Source: an uncultured Rikenellaceae bacterium
Lineage (GTDB): Bacteria; Bacteroidota; Bacteroidia; Bacteroidales; Rikenellaceae
Direction: 5' to 3'
Length of the DNA: 64,000 nt
Assembly: GCA_947040435.1 (NCBI GenBank)
Contig: CAMRBL010000001.1
Coordinates: forward strand, 8,440 to 72,439
Shown: positions 19,123 to 50,231 of the stretch, piece after piece
How positions within the stretch are numbered: the first letter of the stretch is position 1
How the letters are laid out: the number at the start of each line of letters is the position of its first letter
Made by a program: the position numbers and the translations under genes
The notes under the pieces: model-generated
The model's input: the letters and a program-made list of their open reading frames with translations, nothing else
Told to the model about the DNA's origin: nothing
Databases searched by the model: none

Positions 19123-20238
19123 ATGAATGGTCGTGCGTATCGTATTATCTTGACTCTTTTTAGATTAATCCTATCTGCCGTATTTATATTCTCTGGATTT
19201 ATTAAGTCGATTGACCCTTGGGGTACGGCGATAAAAGTTGGGGAGTATATATCAGCTGTTAATCTCGAATTCTCCGATAATATATACTTAGGCCTATCAT
19301 TTCTACTCTGCGGCGGAGAGTTACTCCTCGGATTACTGCTCCTTTTTGGCGTATGGAAAAGAGTGTTTTCAACAGTAGCAATGTTATTTATGTCAGTGAT
19401 GACTCTGCTAACGTTGTGGATTGCCATTTGGAATCCAGTCGCAGATTGCGGATGCTTTGGAGACGCTGTCAAGCTAACTAATTGGGAAACATTCTTCAAA
19501 AATTTAGTACTCTTACCTATAAGTATCATGTTGTGGAGAGCATGGTCTCGACCTGGAGCAACCGAAACAAATACGATGCTATCAAAGAGCATGAGGGTTA
19601 TATTGCCCATTTGTCTATTAAGCTTTATATCTTTTGGAGTCTGCTTTTACTCACTTAAACACCTCCCGATTATAGATTTTTTACCTTATAAAGTTGGTGT
19701 AGACTTACTTTCAGATTTTAAAGATCAAAGTGAAGTAACGAGTGGTGATGAGACAAAACTAATATACAAAAATATTGATAGTGGTAAACTCTCAGAGTTC
19801 ACTCTCAACGATACAGAGTGGTACGACACATTGAAATGGGAATATGTAGAGACAATTACCCCAACAGAGAGCTCGAATAGCGCAATTAATGAATTCATGC
19901 TATTCGATGGGACAGACTTTATTACAGAAAATGTATTGGCCGAGGAGAGAGTTCTACTAATAGCCATCTGGGATATGTCGACACCAATCGCAACCAACTG
20001 TATGACAAATCTAGTGAAATTAGTAGATGATTTAAGTGCAAAAAAATATAAAATATACTGTATAACACCATCTTCACTCGATAAATATCCACGCTTAAAT
20101 ATTGGAGGAGCAACCATTCAGACACTGAATATAGATGGTAAAACGCTTAAAAGTGCAATGAGAAGTGAAGTTGGTATTTTTGAGATTGATAATGGTATTA
20201 TCACCTCAAAAAGAAGCTGCTATAACGCACACAATTAG
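19123..20238 (+). CDS. DoxX/MauE-like membrane protein with a C-terminal soluble (thioredoxin-fold-like) domain
   Basis: The N-terminal roughly 170 aa has 4 TM segments including the CGCFG motif typical of the MauE/DoxX redox-associated family. The C-terminal roughly 190 aa is hydrophilic. Confidence 0.5.
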   Translation: MNGRAYRIILTLFRLILSAVFIFSGFIKSIDPWGTAIKVGEYISAVNLEFSDNIYLGLSFLLCGGELLLGLLLLFGVWKRVFSTVAMLFMSVMTLLTLWIAIWNPVADCGCFGDAVKLTNWETFFKNLVLLPISIMLWRAWSRPGATETNTMLSKSMRVILPICLLSFISFGVCFYSLKHLPIIDFLPYKVGVDLLSDFKDQSEVTSGDETKLIYKNIDSGKLSEFTLNDTEWYDTLKWEYVETITPTESSNSAINEFMLFDGTDFITENVLAEERVLLIAIWDMSTPIATNCMTNLVKLVDDLSAKKYKIYCITPSSLDKYPRLNIGGATIQTLNIDGKTLKSAMRSEVGIFEIDNGIITSKRSCYNAHN

Positions 20239-20360
20239 GCTGAAACACAACTTATATACGTAAAGTACTACTACCGCCTACACTACATGATCAAAGTGCA
20301 GTACAGCAAGCATAGGAGAGTTATATCTGTATCAACTCGCAAACGCATATATAACAAAAC

Positions 20361-20394
20361 AAAAAAGCCCTCAATAATATTGGGGGCTTTTTTG
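20361..20394. terminator. Bidirectional intrinsic terminator
   Basis: AAAAAAGCCCTCAAT-aat-ATTGGGGGCTTTTTT: a 9-bp GC-rich stem with one G.U, flanked by an A-run and a T-run, between convergent genes. Confidence 0.8.
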
Positions 20395-20441
20395 TTATAT
20401 TTTGTTTTATTATCTTATTAACCAGATAGCGTTATAATGTA

Positions 20442-21500
20442 TTACTCCTCTTTATCTTCGTCCACCTCTTTAGGCAAGATCTCTATAGAAAATATCAGTG
20501 GAGTATATGGTTGAATTACAGTCGCACCATCAGTATCCCCCCTATATCCATAGCCATACTTCGATGTGAATACCATATTAAACTTACAACCAAATCTAAG
20601 TGTATCAGTTGCTACAATTGTTTTGAATGCTTGAATTTCTCCCGACGTTTCAGAATAACTACCAAGTGTACCAGCAATCGCTTGATTCCACTCTATTAGA
20701 GCAGTATCAGGATAGTTAGTATCAATAATAAATCCATCTAACGTTCTCGCAACATACTTATATTTAAATGAAGATCCAGTCTTAATAGTATCACTCATAG
20801 TAGCTCCCGAGTAATCAATCTCAGCATAAAAGTTTGGTGCAATCGTATCTCTTTCACTCTCCACTCCTGCATAATTAGCCTTTGCATAGTCATATACATT
20901 CTTATTTTCATAGGCCGTAATACTCCTAACACTCATCATAGCAACCATTCTTATTATTGCCGGTTTATTAGGATTGATTACAACCGTTCCGTTGTATCCC
21001 CAAGTGAATCCAAACATAGCATTTCCACTACCAAAGTCACCGTATGCAACACTAGATGGCATAATAAGTTCAACCTCTTGCCCAACTTTCATCGTCTTCA
21101 ACGCCTCATATTGACCCGGAGTTACACCACTACTATCTTTAACTACACGTACTAATTGTGGAGTGTAGTGTGTTCTAGGACTAAATACACCCTGGTCAAA
21201 TATACGTCTAGCGACATCTTCATACCTATTAGCATAAATATCCCCCTGTAAGTTAGACCCAACATAGTTCAGCAATATCCATGAACCATCATTAATCCCC
21301 TCTGCTCCAGCTTCTGCCTCTTTCAACGTTGAGATATACATACCGTCTTTAAACTTTTTAGCGTTAGGTCTATTCAACTTAACCCACTCATCAACAGAAG
21401 CTTGCTCTACAATATTAGGCTTTTCTGATGTTGTCTCTGCACATGAAAACATGGCAACTACGAATAAAGATAAAAACAGCGTTTTAATAGTATGTTTCAT
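20442..21500 (-). CDS. Lipoprotein with two FKBP-type peptidyl-prolyl isomerase-like domains
   Basis: Lipobox (AMFSC). Contains FKBP-like segments (GQYEALKTMKVGQEVELIMPSSVAYGDFG and ...KYGYGYRGD...IQPYTPLIFSIEIL). Confidence 0.6.
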   Translation of the reverse strand: MKHTIKTLFLSLFVVAMFSCAETTSEKPNIVEQASVDEWVKLNRPNAKKFKDGMYISTLKEAEAGAEGINDGSWILLNYVGSNLQGDIYANRYEDVARRIFDQGVFSPRTHYTPQLVRVVKDSSGVTPGQYEALKTMKVGQEVELIMPSSVAYGDFGSGNAMFGFTWGYNGTVVINPNKPAIIRMVAMMSVRSITAYENKNVYDYAKANYAGVESERDTIAPNFYAEIDYSGATMSDTIKTGSSFKYKYVARTLDGFIIDTNYPDTALIEWNQAIAGTLGSYSETSGEIQAFKTIVATDTLRFGCKFNMVFTSKYGYGYRGDTDGATVIQPYTPLIFSIEILPKEVDEDKEE

Positions 21501-42630: not shown

Positions 42631-43998
42631 TTATAGTTTATTCTCAAAGGCAGACAAAGCAGCTTCATACTCAAGATCTGGTTCAATTATCCAACCTCCT
42701 TGCTGATTAATATATCCATACTTACCTCCACTTTTCACTAAAGCAGCACCAGTTTTTTTACGCATATTACCAGCCATCTCATATTGAGGCTCAATAACCA
42801 TATCACCTTTTTTATTGATATAGCCCCACCTTCCACCAACTTCAACGGCAGCAAGGTTATTACTGAAATGTTTAATTTTTGTGGCCCAATTACAATTTAT
42901 AATCTGTCGTCCATTGACATCTATATATTGCCATGCACCACCGAGATTTACTGCGGCTAGACCATCTCTAAACTCATGCGCAGTATCAAATATTGGTTCA
43001 ATGAGTACCTCCCCACTCTCACTCATGTATCCCCATTTACTACACTTATTAAATACAACAAACTCTTGATCTATCTCAGTAATTGGCTTCTGCTGCAAAT
43101 TACAGACTAAATTATATATATTATCTATATCAGGAGTTGAAGACAATAACGCCTCGGCAATCTGAAACAACCCGAATTCACCATTATCAATAAAGGTATG
43201 TTTTATATCATTATATTTTTGCGAGCGGTTAGCAAAAATATCTGCTGGAAGAAAAAGACAACAATCACCACCCTTATCTTTGTCATATATAGTTGTATCA
43301 AGGACTAAAACCCCAAGTATTGTTGCAATCATTGCAATAGAATAATCATCAATACTTTTATTGAAATAGTCCCGATCTCTCAAAGGGTGTTGATAGCCTG
43401 GTGTTCCAATTTCATCTGTGTTATCTCCTGCAAATGCTGGGATATACACCGCATCAAGATCTATTAATGTAAGGCCATCTTGTGTGACAATAATATTTTC
43501 AGGTTTAATATCTCCATGTGCCCACTCTTGTTTGAGTAACCACAAACTTAGCTCAATAAACTTACCGTACAACCACTCTAAACGTGGTTTATCCTCCATG
43601 AGTGCTGATCTTTTTATGGCAGTATTAAGAGTCATCCCCTCTTGCCACTCAGCAATACTAACATCTCTGTATGAGCTATTTCCTGTGATATCATAAACAT
43701 ATATCTCATCCTTTAGCCACGCCTCTTTTGCAAGATAAGGAGTATTAACATTAGATAGATATTGAGAAGTAAGTTCATTTCTCAACGCATTTTTCAGATA
43801 ACATTTGAGTCGTTTTTTAGTTCCGTTTTCAATGATCGGAAACACCACTGATTTATTTCCACAATACAACTCAATATCACCTCTCATATCAGTGCAACAC
43901 CCCATAACATTAAGAGTGCGAAATAACCCGTATGGGTTATTCACACTCTCTATATAGTTTGTAACTGGTATTTGAATATTTGTACTACTCCTCACCAT
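42631..43998 (-). CDS. Atypical Hanks-type protein kinase domain fused to C-terminal WG (KWG-like) beta-repeats
   Basis: Catalytic loop HGDIKPENIIV, DLD in place of DFG, GTPGYQHP activation-segment end, and no Gly-rich loop. Four C-terminal repeats: WGYMSESGEVLIEPIFD, WQYIDVNGRQII, WGYINKKGDMVIEPQYE, YGYINQQGGWIIEP. Confidence 0.7.
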   Translation of the reverse strand: MVRSSTNIQIPVTNYIESVNNPYGLFRTLNVMGCCTDMRGDIELYCGNKSVVFPIIENGTKKRLKCYLKNALRNELTSQYLSNVNTPYLAKEAWLKDEIYVYDITGNSSYRDVSIAEWQEGMTLNTAIKRSALMEDKPRLEWLYGKFIELSLWLLKQEWAHGDIKPENIIVTQDGLTLIDLDAVYIPAFAGDNTDEIGTPGYQHPLRDRDYFNKSIDDYSIAMIATILGVLVLDTTIYDKDKGGDCCLFLPADIFANRSQKYNDIKHTFIDNGEFGLFQIAEALLSSTPDIDNIYNLVCNLQQKPITEIDQEFVVFNKCSKWGYMSESGEVLIEPIFDTAHEFRDGLAAVNLGGAWQYIDVNGRQIINCNWATKIKHFSNNLAAVEVGGRWGYINKKGDMVIEPQYEMAGNMRKKTGAALVKSGGKYGYINQQGGWIIEPDLEYEAALSAFENKL

Positions 43999-44027: not shown

Positions 44028-45092
44028 TTATTTATTCATTATCTCATTCTGACGACTAATACTCTCAAGGTGAATTGCCTCAAGAATAGTGCGAATAAAT
44101 GGCTCGCTTAGATTCAGTTTCTTAGAGCCAACTACTTTATCAACAATATTATTCCAACGTCCACCCTGAAGAATAGCTACGTTATTATCTCTTTTCAGCG
44201 CACCAATTTTATCTGCAACTTGCATACGTTGGTTCAACAAATAGAAGAGCTCAGAGTCAATTTGGTCAATCTGTTGTCTGTTATTATCAAGCTCTTTCAG
44301 GTAATCTGCCGAGTCAACAGAGTCTGCTCTCCAATTAATTGAGCTAATCAACTCTCCCATCTCTTCAGGAACAATCTGCTGTGCAGCATCACTTAGTGCC
44401 TCTGAAGGACAGATATGACTCTCAAGAATCAAACCATCAAATCTTAAATCGGCAGCTTGTTGTGAAACTTCATGAAGAAGTTCGCTACATCCACAAATAT
44501 GCGACGGATCACAAATCATAGGCATATCAGGGAATCTATTTCTCATCTCAACAACTAAATGCCACATTGGCGAGTTTCTGAATTTACTGTTTCCGAAATG
44601 AGAGAATCCTCTATGTATAAGTCCAATGTTATTTATGTCAATACCTACATTTGTAAGTCTCGCCACAGCACCTGCCCATAAATCTATATCTGGATGCATT
44701 GGGTTTTTGATAAGTATAGTTTTATCTGTACCTCTTAATGCGTCAGCAATATCTTGAACACTAAATGGATTAACCGTTGTACGTGCTCCGATCCAAAGAA
44801 TATCAACATCAAACTCTAGTGCATTCTCAACATGCTTTGACGTAGCAACCTCTACTGCAATTGGAAGACCTGTTATCTCTCTAGCTTTAGCCAACCAAGC
44901 CAAACCCTTTATACCTACACCCTCAAATGATCCTGGTTTTGTACGAGGTTTCCATATTCCCGCACGAAGGACATCAATTTTTCCCGTTGCTGCAAGTCTT
45001 TTGCACGTCTCTAATGTCTGCTCTTCTGTCTCCGCACTACAAGGACCTGATATTATTAAAGGTCTTTTTGCCTTTAGGTTAAATTTTTCCAT
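44028..45092 (-). CDS. Bifunctional 3-deoxy-7-phosphoheptulonate (DAHP) synthase / chorismate mutase type II
   Basis: N-terminal class I-beta DAHPS/KDO8PS-like TIM barrel (…PLIISGPCSAE…LRAGIWKPRT…) and a C-terminal CM_2 helix bundle (…IDQIDSELFYLLNQRMQVADKIGALK…). Confidence 0.85.
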   Translation of the reverse strand: MEKFNLKAKRPLIISGPCSAETEEQTLETCKRLAATGKIDVLRAGIWKPRTKPGSFEGVGIKGLAWLAKAREITGLPIAVEVATSKHVENALEFDVDILWIGARTTVNPFSVQDIADALRGTDKTILIKNPMHPDIDLWAGAVARLTNVGIDINNIGLIHRGFSHFGNSKFRNSPMWHLVVEMRNRFPDMPMICDPSHICGCSELLHEVSQQAADLRFDGLILESHICPSEALSDAAQQIVPEEMGELISSINWRADSVDSADYLKELDNNRQQIDQIDSELFYLLNQRMQVADKIGALKRDNNVAILQGGRWNNIVDKVVGSKKLNLSEPFIRTILEAIHLESISRQNEIMNK

Positions 45093-45106: not shown

Positions 45107-45949
45107 TTATTTTAATATTCTAGTTATTGTATTAGCCTTAGTCATTATATCCGTAAGACCCTTTATATCATCTTTTTCTAGCAATTTTCTGAAAATTTGT
45201 AGCTGGTGAATATGCTCCCTTAACACCTCTAATATATTGTATTTGTTCTGCGATAAGATTGGAACCCATGTCTTAGGAGAACTCTTCGCCAAACGCACCG
45301 TACTCTCAAAACCTCCACCTGCGAGGTCAAAGATATGCTCCTCTTCACGCTCTTTCTCAAGAACAGTTAGTGCCAAAGCAAAAGATGTGATGTGAGATAT
45401 ATGAGAAATGTATGCAGAGTGCATATCCTGCTCCTCAGAGCTCATATATTTTGGTCGCATACCTATTTTCACATACATATCTACCACTGTTGCTAAGGCA
45501 TCTTCAGCACTTAACTCCTTGTCGCAAATAACAACCGTTCTTCCAGTAAATGCACCCTTCACAGCGGACTCTGGACCACTATGCTCTGTACCCCACATAG
45601 GGTGAGTTGCGACATACCTATCTCTATTGGGATGAAGTGCGATAATCTCACTTAATTCACTCTTTATAGAGCCCATATCCATTACGATCTGCTGCTTACT
45701 TATCTTATTAAGTAGCTTAACTGAAAGAATTGGAATCGAGTCTACGGGGGTTGCTATAACGATTAAGTCGGCACATTCAATAGCCTCCTCAATAGTCACC
45801 ATCCTATCTACTAACCCTAATTCCAGAGCTTTCTTTCTATTTATATCTGAGTTATCAACTCCTAGTATAGTATTACTTATGTTGTTGTCTCTGAGACTCA
45901 ATGCGAATGAACCTCCAATAAGACCTATACCAATAATCGCTGTTATCAT
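45107..45949 (-). CDS. tyrA: Prephenate dehydrogenase
   Basis: Rossmann motif IIGIGLIGGSFA, …ATHPMWGTEHSG… and operon context. Confidence 0.8.
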   Translation of the reverse strand: MITAIIGIGLIGGSFALSLRDNNISNTILGVDNSDINRKKALELGLVDRMVTIEEAIECADLIVIATPVDSIPILSVKLLNKISKQQIVMDMGSIKSELSEIIALHPNRDRYVATHPMWGTEHSGPESAVKGAFTGRTVVICDKELSAEDALATVVDMYVKIGMRPKYMSSEEQDMHSAYISHISHITSFALALTVLEKEREEEHIFDLAGGGFESTVRLAKSSPKTWVPILSQNKYNILEVLREHIHQLQIFRKLLEKDDIKGLTDIMTKANTITRILK

Positions 45950-47130
45950 TATCGTTTAAAATTTTCCTTTATTTTTCTTATTGCACTCTCTATAACCTGC
46001 TCCGTTGCACATAGAGATATTCTTATGTAACGCTCTCCCTCACTTCCAAATATTCCTCCAGGGGTGACAAACACTCCACAATTATAGAGAATATTATCAG
46101 AAAAATCGTAGCAATCACCCTCAAAATCTTCAGGTAGCTCTGCCCACACGAATAGCCCAGCCTGCCCTGCTCTATACTTACACCCCAGTACATCAAGTAG
46201 TTCGTAACCTTTAGACTCTCTAGCATAGTAAGTAGAATTTAACTCCTCATACCAATCATCGCCAAGGTTAAGGGCAACAGCCGCAGCCTCTTGCATCGGA
46301 AGAAACATTCCTGAATCCATATTACTCTTAAAACGAATAATATCTTCAATTCGCTCCTTTGCTCCGATAATAGCTCCAACTCTCCATCCAGCCATATTAT
46401 GACTCTTACTCAGTGAGTTCAACTCAATAGCGACATCTTTAGCCCCCTCAATAGAGAGTAGACTCATAGGTTTATCGTTTCTCACAAAGCTATATGGATT
46501 ATCGTGCACCAATAGGATGTTATGCCTCTTTGCAAACTCAACAAGTTTTTCAAACAACTCCTCCGTTGGCTTCGCACCAGTAGGCATTTGCGGATAGTTG
46601 ACAATCATCATCTTCACGCCGTCAAGACCATCACGCTCCATCTTTTCGAAATTAGGAAACCAATCATTTTTCGCAGATAGCTTATAATCGACACAAATAC
46701 CCGAAGATATTGTAACTGCAGAGCGATATGTTGGGTACCCAGGATTTGGGATTAACACTTTGTCTCCCTTATCAAGGTAGGTCATACATATGTGCATAAG
46801 CCCCTCTTTCGAACCGATAAGTGGAAGTATCTCACTGCTAGGATTCAACTCTACGTTATATCTATTACGATACCAACTAGCAAAACCTTCACGCAGTACC
46901 GCTGCACCTTTATAAGGCTGATAAGCGTGTGTTGTACTCAATAGAGATGACTCTGTCAATTTAGATATAACAGTGTGGTGAGGAGGACGATCTGGAGAGC
47001 CGATCCCCAAACTTACAATCTCTCTACCCTCTGCTTTCAACTCCTCTATCTCTCTAAGTTTTCTTGAAAAATAGTACTCCCCTACTCCTGAGATGCGCTC
47101 TGATACATCTATTAATAAACCCTTATTCAT
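45949..47130 (-). CDS. Class I/II pyridoxal-phosphate aminotransferase (aromatic/prephenate aminotransferase by context)
   Basis: …NPGYPTY…, …NSLSKSHNMAGWRVG… PLP-Lys motif. The start at 47130 (MNKGLLIDV) leaves 4 nt after the pheA stop. Confidence 0.8.
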   Translation of the reverse strand: MNKGLLIDVSERISGVGEYYFSRKLREIEELKAEGREIVSLGIGSPDRPPHHTVISKLTESSLLSTTHAYQPYKGAAVLREGFASWYRNRYNVELNPSSEILPLIGSKEGLMHICMTYLDKGDKVLIPNPGYPTYRSAVTISSGICVDYKLSAKNDWFPNFEKMERDGLDGVKMMIVNYPQMPTGAKPTEELFEKLVEFAKRHNILLVHDNPYSFVRNDKPMSLLSIEGAKDVAIELNSLSKSHNMAGWRVGAIIGAKERIEDIIRFKSNMDSGMFLPMQEAAAVALNLGDDWYEELNSTYYARESKGYELLDVLGCKYRAGQAGLFVWAELPEDFEGDCYDFSDNILYNCGVFVTPGGIFGSEGERYIRISLCATEQVIESAIRKIKENFKR

Positions 47131-47134
47131 AATA

Positions 47135-47953
47135 TTATTCTCTATTACCTTTTTTATAAACACCGTAAACGTGCACCTCTTTTGCTGTTAATTGCAACTT
47201 ATTCAAAATTCTAATGTAATCATCCAAACACTCAAACTCCATATCAACATGAAACAGATAGCTCCAAGGCTCACTAGGAATTGGATATGATTGCAACTTT
47301 GAGAGGTTTATACTTGGATCATCCATCTGATTCAACACCTTTAGTAGTGATCCCTGCTTATGGTCTGTTTTAAAATATAGTGATGCTTTATTTGCATCTG
47401 AAGAGATATGGTGATCGTGTCTTTTAAGTATTACAAATCTAGTATAGTTATTTTTTATCGTATTAATCGCTGGCGCAATTATTTTCAACCCAAATAACTT
47501 CGCTGCCAGTGAACTAGCAATACCTGCTCTATTTCTGATCTTCTGTTCAGAGATAATTTGCGCACTTAAAGCAGTATCTTCACTCTCTACTAACTTCCAT
47601 TTGTGTGCATCTAAATAGTCAACACACTGCAAAAGTGCCATAGGATGTGAGTGAACCTCCTCTATATCTTCAAGCTCTACATCTGGCAGAACGACTAGAT
47701 TTTGCTCTATTGGCAAGTATGCCTCTCCGTCCACCTGCAATTGATTACTCTGAAGAATGCTGTAATTTGGGATAATACTCCCCGCAATTGAGTTCTCAAT
47801 TGCCATCACACCATAGTCCGCCTCACCCGTCTTTACTCTCCTTGCCAACTCACGGAAAGTTGCACAATATAGTGTGTTAATCTCATCTCCGAAGTACTCT
47901 CTTGCTACAATCTGGTGAAAACACCCTTCATAACCTTGTATTGCTATTTTCAT
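47135..47953 (-). CDS. pheA: Prephenate dehydratase
   Basis: MKIAIQGYEGCFHQ start, …ENSIAGSI… and a C-terminal ACT domain (…LSKLQSYPIP…). The track's extra 29 N-terminal codons run through the attenuator terminator and are rejected. Confidence 0.85.
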   Translation of the reverse strand: MKIAIQGYEGCFHQIVAREYFGDEINTLYCATFRELARRVKTGEADYGVMAIENSIAGSIIPNYSILQSNQLQVDGEAYLPIEQNLVVLPDVELEDIEEVHSHPMALLQCVDYLDAHKWKLVESEDTALSAQIISEQKIRNRAGIASSLAAKLFGLKIIAPAINTIKNNYTRFVILKRHDHHISSDANKASLYFKTDHKQGSLLKVLNQMDDPSINLSKLQSYPIPSEPWSYLFHVDMEFECLDDYIRILNKLQLTAKEVHVYGVYKKGNRE

Positions 47954-48019
47954 ATTTCTTATATTTTCACCTCTAAGTTCATCACTCTCTTCAGAAGATA
48001 TAACCCTAGAGGTATATGT

Positions 48020-48055
48020 AAAAAAAATCCCGATCATCATACTGAGACCGGGATT
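48020..48055 (-). terminator. Intrinsic terminator of the pheA-operon leader (attenuator)
   Basis: Minus strand: AAUCCCGGUC-ucaguaugau-GAUCGGGAUU, a 10-bp stem with one G.U, running into a U8 tract. It lies 66 nt upstream of the pheA ATG. Confidence 0.75.
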
Positions 48056-48089
48056 CTATACTATATTAGTTAAGATTTTATATGCTTGC

Positions 48090-48173
48090 TTATAAACACG
48101 CACCGCCCAGTTCAACTCTCATTTGAAAGTAGAAATAATAATAAAACTGAGTATAAAATGGCGAAAACATCAT
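48090..48173 (-). CDS. 27-aa Phe/Tyr-rich leader peptide MMFSPFYTQFYYYFYFQMRVELGGACL
   Basis: Hand translation of the minus strand; too short for the ORF track. Five F and five Y fall among residues 3-16, including the run FYYYFYF. It sits between a promoter and a terminator directly upstream of the Phe/Tyr biosynthesis operon. Confidence 0.7.
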   Translation of the reverse strand: MMFSPFYTQFYYYFYFQMRVELGGACL

Positions 48174-48217
48174 CTCCTTATCTATTGGTGTTGTTGTTGT
48201 GTTTAAAATATTCGGTA

Positions 48218-48250
48218 CAAATATAGGTATATTTTTTATTCTTATGCAAA
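48218..48250 (-). promoter_or_regulatory. Bacteroidota-type promoter TTTG-N21-TATATTTG driving the leader and pheA operon
   Basis: Minus strand TTTG (48250-48247) and TATATTTG (48225-18) with a 21-nt spacer, about 45 nt upstream of the leader ATG. Confidence 0.55.
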
Positions 48251-48328
48251 TTTACACTGCATTTTATTATATTTTTTTACCTCATATCAGCCTACATAAC
48301 AGCTAGAGGCGTAAAGTACATTCATCAA

Positions 48329-49147
48329 TTAATACAAATTATACTCCATACGACTAATGATACCATCTCTAGTCTCTATAAACTCAGGGTTATTTGGACT
48401 AAGTAAAATAGCTTTATCAACACTAGCAAGAGCCTCTTCAAATCTACTCTCTTGGATATATATATTTGCTATATTCTTGTACGTATCTGCTAAATTAGGA
48501 TTCAATTCCTTTGCTCGAACCAACTCCCTCATCGCATCAGTCAACTCTCCTTGCTTTATGTAGATATCTCCCCGATTACAGTATGACTCTGCCAAATTTG
48601 GTTTCAATTCAATAGATTTACTTAAATCAACTAGAGCCTCATCGTATCTACTCTGACTGGCGTACACTCCAGCTCGATTACAATACGCCTCAGCAATTTT
48701 AGGATTCAATTCAATAGCTCTATTCAAATCCGTTAGTGCTTCATCATATCTCTTTTGCACTAAGTATACTGCAGCTCTATTAGAGTAACCCACTGCAAAC
48801 TTAGGCATCAACTCTACGACTCTATTGAAATCAGTTAGTGCTTCGTCATATTTATTCTGCTTTAGATAGAAACCCCCACGATCTAGAGATACAAATACCG
48901 ATCTAGGCTTAATTTTTGCCAATTTAGTACACAATCGTATCCGTTTATTAGGATCACTCTCTTTCATTGCCAGCCTAATAACTAGAATTTGTTTTAGTTT
49001 CAGAAGCTCCATAACAATCAAGAAGCATATGATTCCAAATAATCCTAAACGTAATATAGAACTCCACAATGGTCCGCAACACTCCAAAGCATCTATTATA
49101 AATAGGACTGCAAGTAATACATATATATAAACCCATCTTCGCATCAT
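48329..49147 (-). CDS. Membrane-anchored tetratricopeptide repeat protein
   Basis: Two N-terminal TM helices, then about five near-identical TPR units (…YDEALTDLNRAIELNPK.AEAYCNRA…). Confidence 0.8.
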   Translation of the reverse strand: MMRRWVYIYVLLAVLFIIDALECCGPLWSSILRLGLFGIICFLIVMELLKLKQILVIRLAMKESDPNKRIRLCTKLAKIKPRSVFVSLDRGGFYLKQNKYDEALTDFNRVVELMPKFAVGYSNRAAVYLVQKRYDEALTDLNRAIELNPKIAEAYCNRAGVYASQSRYDEALVDLSKSIELKPNLAESYCNRGDIYIKQGELTDAMRELVRAKELNPNLADTYKNIANIYIQESRFEEALASVDKAILLSPNNPEFIETRDGIISRMEYNLY

Positions 49148-49289
49148 AATTAATACTCTTTTATATGTTAAGTAATAACCACAAGATACGAAAATAATTA
49201 CATGATAGCTCTACACAGAACAAGTTTAATTGTTTTTTACAATAGATTATCCACCAACAGAATTGCTACGTGGCTACAAGGAACACACT

Positions 49290-50231
49290 CTATTTATACA
49301 GTGCACCTTGGTATGTATCTCTCTCTTCAAGCCTTTTCTCTAACATTGACAAGAGCTGTTCGTTGCGGATAAGTCCCCAATTACGACCAAAATGGTAGCG
49401 TGGAGGAGCTTCACTTGCAAATCGCTCAACAACTAAATCTGGTCTAAGTCTCTCCAAAATATCTATAAATAGATCTATATATTGCGAAACCTCCCAATAC
49501 CGAAATTTCTCAGGATCAACAACATATTCATCTGCCATTGTTGTCCCCTTGAATATCTGTAATTGATGGAATTTAATGGTATCTAACGGTAATGAATTTA
49601 TTAATTCGACTTGGTCTATTAACATTTGATCCGTCTCTCCAGGAAGTCCTAATATGAAGTGTGCACCAGAGTGCAAGCCTCTCTCAGCGGTCATCTCGAT
49701 AGCTCGTTTTGCACACTCAAAGTCATGTCCTCTATTAATATCCTTCAACGTAGCATCATAACACGACTCTACACCATATTCGATAGTGACGTAGTACTTT
49801 TTTGCCAACTCAGCAAAGTAGTCTAATTTCTCTTCATCCACACAATCGGGTCTAGTTCCTATAACTAACCCCGTAATCATTGGGTGGGTAAGTGCCTCAT
49901 CATATATCTTTTTCAACTGCTCAAGTGGCGCATGTGTATTTGAAAAAGATTGAAAGTATGCTAGAAACTTCTCGGCTTTTCTATATCGATTGAGGTGAAA
50001 CTCAATACCCTCTTCAATCTGTTTTGTTACCCTCTTATCGGTTGTACAATAGGATGGAGTAAACGCCTCATTATTACAAAACGTACACCCTCCATGCGCT
50101 AACGTTCCATCTCTATTAGGGCAGGTAAACCCTGCATTTACAGATAATTTCTGAACACGACAACCGAACACTCTCTTGAAATATCCCGAATAACTATTAA
50201 ATCGTCTAACACCGCCCCAAGCATACTCCAT
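49290..50231 (-). CDS. TIGR01212-family radical SAM protein
   Basis: N-terminus …YFKRVFGCRVQKLSVNAGFTCPNRDGT…GGCTFCN… is the hallmark of this family. Confidence 0.8.
   Translation of the reverse strand: MEYAWGGVRRFNSYSGYFKRVFGCRVQKLSVNAGFTCPNRDGTLAHGGCTFCNNEAFTPSYCTTDKRVTKQIEEGIEFHLNRYRKAEKFLAYFQSFSNTHAPLEQLKKIYDEALTHPMITGLVIGTRPDCVDEEKLDYFAELAKKYYVTIEYGVESCYDATLKDINRGHDFECAKRAIEMTAERGLHSGAHFILGLPGETDQMLIDQVELINSLPLDTIKFHQLQIFKGTTMADEYVVDPEKFRYWEVSQYIDLFIDILERLRPDLVVERFASEAPPRYHFGRNWGLIRNEQLLSMLEKRLEERDTYQGALYK

Follow-up and report, generated by a model that had tools for sequence, protein, structure and literature searches.

The pheA locus and its leader region

A stretch of 64,000 nucleotides (nt) from a Rikenellaceae bacterium, in the following the 64-kb window, carries on its minus strand a closely packed operon of four genes, which encode prephenate dehydratase (pheA), an aminotransferase, prephenate dehydrogenase (tyrA) and a fusion of DAHP synthase with chorismate mutase (DAHPS/CM), and which make both phenylalanine (Phe, F) and tyrosine (Tyr, Y). 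The leader region of this operon, the subject of the present article, comprises a promoter, a short open reading frame (ORF) rich in Phe and Tyr codons and an intrinsic terminator, and had been read in an earlier note on this DNA as a leader-peptide attenuator. That reading is supported, mainly by comparison with relatives: judging by sequence, the region very probably constitutes a ribosome-mediated transcription attenuator, which would adjust transcription of the whole pheA-aminotransferase-tyrA-DAHPS/CM operon to the supply of charged tRNA-Phe and tRNA-Tyr. The PheA protein of the window places the DNA in the Rikenellaceae, among Alistipes-like gut metagenome-assembled genomes (MAGs), with a best match of 97% identity. 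The identities that the earlier note had given to the four genes are borne out by Pfam matches.

47135 to 47953, minus strand: pheA (prephenate dehydratase), the first regulated gene; Pfam PDT, 8.3e-55
45949 to 47163, minus strand: class I/II aminotransferase; Pfam PF00155, 3.5e-56
45107 to 45949, minus strand: prephenate dehydrogenase (tyrA); Pfam PDH_N and PDH_C
44028 to 45092, minus strand: DAHP synthase/chorismate mutase fusion; Pfam DAHP_synth_1 and CM_2

The pheA start codon that the note had chosen, the ATG at 47953, lies 66 nt past the U-run of the terminator and agrees with the N-termini of homologues, which start with MKIAIQGYEG. The automatic ORF list, as the note had also remarked, extends pheA too far upstream, the listed start being an ATG in the terminator loop (48040). 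The elements of the leader, all of which are read on the minus strand, are the following.

48247 to 48250, minus strand: -33 box TTTG of a Bacteroidota-type promoter, read from the sequence
48218 to 48225, minus strand: -7 box TATATTTG (TAnnTTTG), 21 nt from the TTTG box, the motif match spanning 48218-48250
48174 to 48212, minus strand: predicted A-rich, unstructured 5' untranslated region (UTR) of the leader, unpaired in the centroid fold
48090 to 48173, minus strand: leader ORF, 27 codons plus TAA, encoding MMFSPFYTQFYYYFYFQMRVELGGACL; read from the sequence, with homologous ORFs in relatives
48126 to 48167, minus strand: regulatory codons F3-F16, five Phe and five Tyr, seven of them consecutive (FYYYFYF), read from the sequence
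48144 to 48163, minus strand: region 1, the 5' strand of the predicted anti-antiterminator, made up of CGCC (48163-48160, Ser4-Pro5 codons) and CAGUUU (48149-48144); RNAfold
48104 to 48115, minus strand: region 2, UUGAACUGGGCG, codons 20-23 of the ORF, with region 1 and the terminator 5' arm as alternative partners
48042 to 48055, minus strand: region 3, the terminator 5' arm AAUCCCGGUC plus UCAG, of which 48052-48042 doubles as the 3' strand of the antiterminator
48026 to 48035, minus strand: region 4, the terminator 3' arm GAUCGGGAUU; RNAfold
48020 to 48027, minus strand: U8 tract of the intrinsic terminator, read from the sequence

Promoter, ORF and terminator were found as the earlier note had described them, that is, a promoter TTTG-N21-TATATTTG (48250-48218), a 27-codon ORF (48173-48090) with ten F/Y among residues 3-16 including the run FYYYFYF, and a hairpin with U8 (48055-48020) beginning 34 nt past the leader stop. 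The hairpin, whose 5' arm AAUCCCGGUC proper occupies 48055-48046, has a folding energy of -17.5 kcal/mol (z = -4.8), and none of 200 shuffles was equally stable. RNAfold was used here instead of the built-in terminator scan, which passed over the hairpin because its loop and inner stem lie beyond the limits of the scan. The promoter is one of 12 matches to TTTG-N17-23-TAnnTTTG in the window, compared with 2.85 +/- 1.64 in shuffles. In Flavobacterium psychrophilum, the leader RNA of the corresponding operon starts at the sixth nt after TTTG, according to the start site mapped in the supplement of PMC9723704, and by analogy with this spacing transcription of the window leader would start near 48212.

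The leader ORF, which has a second in-frame ATG at 48170, is the sole one with eight F/Y in ten residues among 551 small ATG ORFs in the window, although its F/Y richness is marginal when judged by the window alone. A scan of the window for further leader-peptide-like ORFs with runs of His, Trp, Thr, Leu, Ile, Val, Met or Cys yielded no convincing candidate.

Conservation of the leader in related genomes

Relatives were collected by scanning a PheA alignment against one genome per species, which gave 80 loci from the Rikenellaceae, Chitinophagaceae and Sphingobacteriales and, with the window, a set of 81 sequences. Among the cultivable bacteria represented are Alistipes hominis New-7 (L048), Millionella massiliensis (L054), Filimonas zeae (L065), Pseudoflavitalea rhizosphaerae (L067), Paracnuella aquatica (L075) and Ilyomonas limi (L076). 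In four of the loci (L007, L018, L032 and L046) the upstream sequence is missing, and these are uninformative on the presence of a leader. An F/Y-rich ORF upstream of pheA that starts with ATG, together with a terminator, is carried by 73 of the 81 sequences, the window counted. The ORF encodes 19-34 amino acids (aa; median 26, with medians of five Phe and four Tyr) and ends about 60-270 nt upstream of pheA, and in 73/73 leaders the stretch between ORF and pheA holds a hairpin, its folding energy ranging from -13 to -27.6 kcal/mol, and a T-run behind it. At locus L079, ORF and hairpin are present and the T-run is interrupted. Because of its conservation in these 73 sequences, the leader ORF is not due to chance. 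Its F/Y codons vary synonymously across the 73 loci (TTT 248, TTC 87, TAT 156, TAC 132), while the mean column identity outside the helices is 48%, and no conserved structured, aptamer-like domain is apparent.

The promoter is likewise a regular companion of the leader, given that 72 of 74 related leaders have a TAnnTTTG box no more than 120 nt ahead of their ATG, compared with 7.8% of shuffles. Hence, the F/Y-rich ORF, a promoter box of its own and a terminator upstream of pheA are conserved in at least three lineages of Bacteroidota. In about 22 of the loci L051-L079 (Chitinophagaceae, Sphingobacteriales) the -7 box TAnnTTTG is situated only 4-12 nt before the leader ATG, as in tatttttgaagcgcaATG. 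If the start-site spacing of F. psychrophilum applies, the leader ORFs of these loci would reside on leaderless or nearly leaderless mRNAs, unlike that of the window, with its 5' UTR of about 39 nt.

Two further results extend the comparison to structure. On a MAFFT alignment of the relatives, the terminator helix is 92.3% paired and shows 80 double-sided changes, compared with 22.3 in shuffles (0/500). Moreover, 62 relatives and the F. psychrophilum sequence, but neither the window nor its 97%-identical relative, went into a covariance model, and this leave-out model finds the element in the window over its full length at 48137-48020 on the minus strand with 52.5 bits (E 2e-8); its next-best matches have E values of 0.035 or worse and are partial and terminator-like.

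Antiterminator and predicted anti-antiterminator

In the window, UUGAACUGGG (48115-48106), which belongs to region 2, can pair with CCCGGU-C-UCAG (48052-48042) to yield an antiterminator of 10 base pairs with two G-U pairs and a 1-nt bulge, which uses nearly all of the terminator 5' arm. Of two pairings that the earlier note had put forward as candidates, ACUGGG with CCCGGU is the core of this helix: it is homologous to the antiterminator of the relatives, lies at the conserved position and is extended by RNAfold to 10 base pairs. The other, AUACUCAG with CUCAGUAU, gains no comparative support; it appears in no predicted fold, has no conserved counterpart and was rejected as an antiterminator.

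Terminator and antiterminator are mutually exclusive, and folding of the leader RNA, which the note had named as a check, gives both of them, depending on the position of the ribosome and on the state of the 3' arm. RNAfold forms the antiterminator when the F/Y codons are masked by a ribosome and transcription has not reached the terminator 3' arm, the whole nascent RNA in this state having -16.6 to -20.9 kcal/mol. On the other hand, the full-length leader without a ribosome folds as a region 1:2 helix plus the terminator. In this predicted anti-antiterminator, CGCC and CAGUUU of region 1 pair with GAACUG and GGCG and thereby enclose the F/Y run. In 48 of the 73 relatives, the minimum free energy fold pairs 60% or more of region 2 with upstream parts of the leader; the partner is not the same in all clades, and the motif itself hardly varies. 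Ser-Pro before the F/Y run (xSPF, UCG CCN) is kept as the nucleotides UCGCC in the window (48160-48164, minus strand) and in many Rikenellaceae leaders. This UCGCC is predicted to pair with the GGCG(G) that opens region 2, and the Ser-Pro conservation probably reflects the anti-antiterminator RNA helix and not a peptide function.

Throughout the family, the best partner of the terminator 5' arm starts 6-9 nt past the last F/Y codon in most loci and has its 3' end still within the ORF, in the commonest case 11 nt short of the last nucleotide of the stop codon. When each duplex was compared with dinucleotide shuffles, the median z was -4.2, and z lay below -2 in 61/73 loci. The region 2 segment practically duplicates the terminator 3' arm, and the two differ in concert between clades, as the following pairs illustrate.

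leader segment GGUCAGGAU, terminator 5' arm AUCCUGACC
leader segment GGUCGGGAU, terminator 5' arm AUCCCGACC
leader segment GGACCGGAU, terminator 5' arm AUCCGGUCC
leader segment GGGCGG, terminator 5' arm CCGCCC
leader segment GGCCGGGA, terminator 5' arm UCCCGGCC
leader segment GAGCGGGAUU, terminator 5' arm AAUCCCGCU

On the MAFFT alignment, 77.5% of the antiterminator is paired in register, compared with 48-53% after a slide by +/-1, and double-sided changes number 61, compared with 28.7 +/- 4.9 in shuffles (0/500). The alignment is structure-naive, and since the registers of the clades differ by 1 nt (CCUGACC versus CCCGGUCC), this pair count is an underestimate. An alignment-free energy test was therefore added, in which a fixed 30-nt stretch after the last F/Y codon of each locus was paired either with its own terminator 5' arm or with those of other loci. 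Cognate combinations had a mean of -17.0 kcal/mol and non-cognate ones of -12.0 kcal/mol, a difference reached by 0/10,000 permutations (z = -12). Hence, an antiterminator exists that co-varies with the terminator 5' arm across the family.

The pairing segments also account for a feature of the peptides. The C-terminal tails, which are conserved within clades (..NGQDVVC, ..SGxGxxC, ..RPGLLLL), coincide with the RNA pairing segments, G-Q-D being encoded by GGUCAGGAU and P-G-L-L-L by CCGGGAUUGCUUUUGUU, so that their conservation needs no peptide function.

Codon content of the leader and gene content of the operon

In 72/73 leaders, Phe and Tyr codons each number two or more. Where enough downstream sequence is available, every locus but one has tyrA in addition to pheA, and usually the aminotransferase gene, and DAHPS/CM is found wherever the fetched DNA extends to it. 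In the approximately 66 loci that possess tyrA, the leader never has fewer than two Tyr codons. The exception in gene content is L039, the sole operon devoid of tyrA (pheA-DAHPS/CM), and this locus also has the sole Tyr-free leader, MLKSLFSFGFSFFRFFQSGPGEVCA, with seven Phe and no Tyr codons. In this one case, leader codon content follows operon content, as the attenuation model predicts. The earlier note had considered a mixed F/Y leader to fit an operon for both amino acids, a fit strengthened by the Tyr-free leader preceding only the tyrA-less operon.

The L039 operon (JAISGX010000018.1, 2296-4510) lacks the aminotransferase gene as well. Although the contig carries the label of a Verrucomicrobiota MAG, the encoded PheA shares 64% identity with the Rikenellaceae query, and both leader and terminator resemble those of Rikenellaceae, a combination that suggests mis-binning or horizontal transfer.

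Relation to known attenuators

An element of this kind is already known in the phylum, as a pheA leader was reported in F. psychrophilum by Guérin et al. (2021, ISME Commun; PMC9723704), where the leader of pheA-aspC3 is listed as THC0290_N_0195 (SI D9, Table S7). According to that source, the leader has a mapped start site and shows read-through in specific conditions, operon expression is highest in minimal medium, and the authors propose leader-peptide attenuation and depict putative terminator and antiterminator hairpins (PMC9723704). As far as the published leader sequence shows, the resemblance to the window is extensive: in both, pheA is followed by an aminotransferase gene and preceded by a 27-aa mixed F/Y peptide (MNTNNTFYSNNSFYFYWNIGRDCYMVI in F. 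psychrophilum), the terminator arm is of an AAUCCCG type that can be likened to that of the window, and GGGAUUGU in the 3' part of the ORF is complementary to the terminator 5' arm ACAAUCCC, which is the same design as in the window. The window element is found by the covariance model that includes the F. psychrophilum sequence. On the other hand, the two bacteria belong to different orders, F. psychrophilum to the Flavobacteriales and the window to the Bacteroidales (Rikenellaceae), and the F/Y run of the F. psychrophilum leader, as printed, is sparser and includes Trp, unlike that of the window. Moreover, the F. psychrophilum element is experimentally supported by its reported start site and read-through, whereas the window element is known from sequence alone. 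An extra hairpin ahead of pheA, described below, is a feature of the window that differs from F. psychrophilum.

In Escherichia coli, tyrA is under the control of TyrR and not of the pheL attenuator. The pheL-pheA system of E. coli and other gamma-proteobacteria is described as having a short ORF with regulatory codons, alternative 1:2, 2:3 and 3:4 helices and an intrinsic terminator before pheA (PMC3082878), all of which recur in the window, the 1:2 helix as a prediction. In that description pheL carries Phe codons only (PMC3082878), whereas in the window codons of both kinds, Phe and Tyr, share one leader ahead of an operon for the synthesis of the two amino acids. Similarity of sequence or structure between the two is lacking, as the window has no match to an Rfam leader family at E values up to 10, and its promoter type, TTTG/TAnnTTTG, differs from that of E. 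coli pheL-pheA. Interleaved codons through which one leader integrates several amino acids are familiar from the enterobacterial thrL (Thr, Ile) and ilvL (Leu, Val, Ile). These resemble the window in a multi-amino-acid logic that matches the products of the operon, and differ in amino acids and phylum and in the lack of homology.

The Bacteroid-trp motif lies upstream of trp genes and acts via a leader peptide. Weinberg et al. (2010, PMC2864571) list it (RF01692) as a trp-associated element of Bacteroidetes that is probably cis-regulatory and not a riboswitch. Bacteroid-trp and the window leader are both Bacteroidetes elements, yet they belong to different operons, and RF01692 has no match in the window region. 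A cmscan of window positions 47000-49500 against all 4227 families of Rfam 15, with E values up to 10, matched no leader family, the gamma-proteobacterial Phe leader, Bacteroid-trp (RF01692) and the Leu/phe leader (RF01743) included; it returned six unrelated matches, all far below the gathering scores. A 2004 study by Vitreschak et al. reportedly predicts attenuators in Bacteroidetes/Chlorobi. The earlier note had held that leader-peptide attenuators in Bacteroidota were only proposed computationally, which is overstated: the F. psychrophilum leader is backed by a mapped start and conditional read-through (PMC9723704), and Bacteroid-trp is a listed motif with an Rfam accession (PMC2864571). 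A search of the Bacteroides and Alistipes literature on leader peptides, Term-seq and ribosome profiling turned up nothing beyond a general comment on small ORFs within the long 5' UTRs of Bacteroides thetaiotaomicron (PMC7366714).

A model of attenuation and its alternatives

Leader translation, the geometry of the ribosome footprint and the response to Phe and Tyr, as inferred from the arrangement of codons and helices, would combine as follows. Transcription would initiate at the TTTG/TATATTTG promoter, and a ribosome would translate the 27-codon leader while RNA polymerase proceeds. With ample Phe and Tyr, the ribosome would pass the ten F/Y codons and reach the UAA, where it would cover region 2 (48115-48104), or else region 2 would re-pair with region 1 after release of the ribosome. 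In either event the terminator (48055-48026) and the U8 tract would form, and transcription would end about 66 nt before pheA. When either charged tRNA is scarce, on the contrary, the ribosome would stall in the F/Y run and disrupt the region 1:2 helix. Region 2, thus set free, would bind CCCGGU-C-UCAG in the 5' arm of the terminator while the 3' arm is still to be transcribed, so that no terminator arises and the operon is transcribed.

Several findings weigh against this model. The main soft spot of the window copy is the antiterminator, which as an isolated duplex is weak (-10.6 kcal/mol, z = -1.8, matched by 11/200 shuffles) in comparison with the terminator at -17.5 kcal/mol. In addition, region 2 starts only 6-9 nt past the last F/Y codon; therefore ribosomes stalled at the last codons would mask it, and read-through would result only from stalls in the early or middle part of the run. 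The correlation between codons and operon depends on a single tyrA-less locus. Mononucleotide shuffles of the window reach seven F/Y per ten residues, not far from the eight observed. Finally, L049, L061 and L080 carry the same operon without a leader, which indicates that the element is dispensable. These three are Alistipes/Rikenella-type pheA-aminotransferase-tyrA loci devoid of an upstream leader ORF or terminator, the upstream regions of L061 and L080 having 59% GC, and the attenuator has therefore been lost or replaced in some lineages.

Some of these findings also speak for alternative explanations. A terminator/antiterminator pair is by itself silent on what flips the switch, and the weak antiterminator of the window might need help, as would fit a protein, tRNA or ligand that binds the leader RNA and sets the switch, the small ORF being incidental. 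This is highly improbable, since no riboswitch, T-box or protein-binding leader of Rfam matched at E values up to 10, no aptamer-like domain is conserved (48% mean column identity outside the helices), and the ATG, the frame, the F/Y codons and a stop just past region 2 are kept in 73 loci whose nucleotides vary synonymously; moreover, Tyr codons are absent exactly where tyrA is absent. That the ORF arose by chance in T/A-rich DNA, and that the hairpin serves as an ordinary or leaky terminator, or else stabilises the transcript, without any sensing of amino acids, is scarcely credible. The genome has 37% GC, the shuffles come close to the observed F/Y density and three relatives manage without the leader; yet ORF, promoter, terminator and co-varying antiterminator have persisted in families whose sequences differ, termination between a promoter and the first biosynthetic gene would be senseless unless conditional, and the homologue in F. 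psychrophilum is reported to read through conditionally (PMC9723704).

Control might also be mainly translational or post-transcriptional, exerted by leader translation or by a hairpin at 48014-47968, or a leader RNA or peptide might act in trans in the manner of rnTrpL/peTrpL of Sinorhizobium. Such a lineage-specific hairpin, strong at -17.8 kcal/mol (z = -3.5), does lie just 5' of the pheA start, the peptide has C-terminal tails that are shared within clades, and attenuator RNAs and peptides that act in trans have been described in other systems (PMC7298713, PMC7968998). Very little likelihood attaches to this explanation as a replacement for attenuation, as the hairpin with its U8 is a canonical intrinsic terminator found in all 73 leaders, whereas the extra hairpin is confined to the window and L001, the peptide tails are explained by the RNA pairing segments, and a role in trans would supplement a cis mechanism and not replace it.

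Further features of the window

Two additional hairpins accompany the leader.

48082 to 48103, minus strand: small hairpin across the leader stop codon, with UAA in or beside the loop; -6.1 kcal/mol, z = -2.0
47968 to 48014, minus strand: extra hairpin in the spacer that separates the terminator from the pheA ATG, of the stability given above

In the Alistipes group (e.g. L016, L022, L025 and L028) a different conserved hairpin, AUGAAG...UUCAU, lies directly 3' of the leader stop. Pausing, the timing of ribosome release or a mere function as spacer are candidate roles of these stop-codon hairpins. The extra hairpin ahead of pheA is followed by no U-run, and the spacers of loci other than the window and L001, with 14-50 nt, are too short for it. 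L001, the 97%-identical relative, has its hairpin at the same site with an inner stem of differing sequence. The structure might affect translation of pheA or stability of the mRNA, or it might be a small inserted palindrome.

Weak partial matches to the leader model occur on both strands at window positions 20347-20422 (E 0.035 and 0.089), restricted to the terminator half. This site is located between the convergent ORFs 19123-20238 (plus strand) and 20442-21500 (minus strand) and looks like a bidirectional intrinsic terminator in the AAUCCCGG...CCGGGAUUUUUU style that is also seen in the leader. Past the operon, after a gap of 29 nt, follows a gene at 42631-43998 (minus strand) whose product of 455 aa has WG-containing beta repeats and a protein-kinase match that is weak and below threshold.

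Implications

The known mechanism of leader-peptide attenuation is left unchanged by these findings, which add as useful by-products a family of about 70 members without an Rfam match, the identification of its antiterminator and a correlation between leader codons and operon genes. The annotation of this gut Rikenellaceae genome gains a regulatory ORF that had been overlooked, the start of pheA is corrected and the terminator in the 5' region is explained. The roughly 70 leaders with co-varying terminator and antiterminator would support a new RNA family of Bacteroidota.

It is unlikely, if worth stating, that this is a phylum-wide RNA family absent from Rfam whose workings differ from the enterobacterial paradigm. 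If that were true, one interleaved run of Phe and Tyr codons would amount to OR-type sensing of two amino acids, the leader would be initiated without a Shine-Dalgarno-dependent mechanism, and the ORF starts of Chitinophagales and Sphingobacteriales, 4-12 nt past the -7 box, would imply leaderless or near-leaderless leader mRNAs. In addition, the leader transcript that ends at the terminator, which would be abundant and about 190 nt long, or a peptide with clade-conserved tails, might act in trans like the rhizobial rnTrpL/peTrpL.

Given a model of such a leader family, the ratio of leader to operon RNA in Alistipes and its relatives could serve metatranscriptomics as an indicator of Phe/Tyr limitation in situ. 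Moreover, the leader could provide a simple test system for the coupling of transcription and translation in a phylum that initiates translation unlike E. coli.

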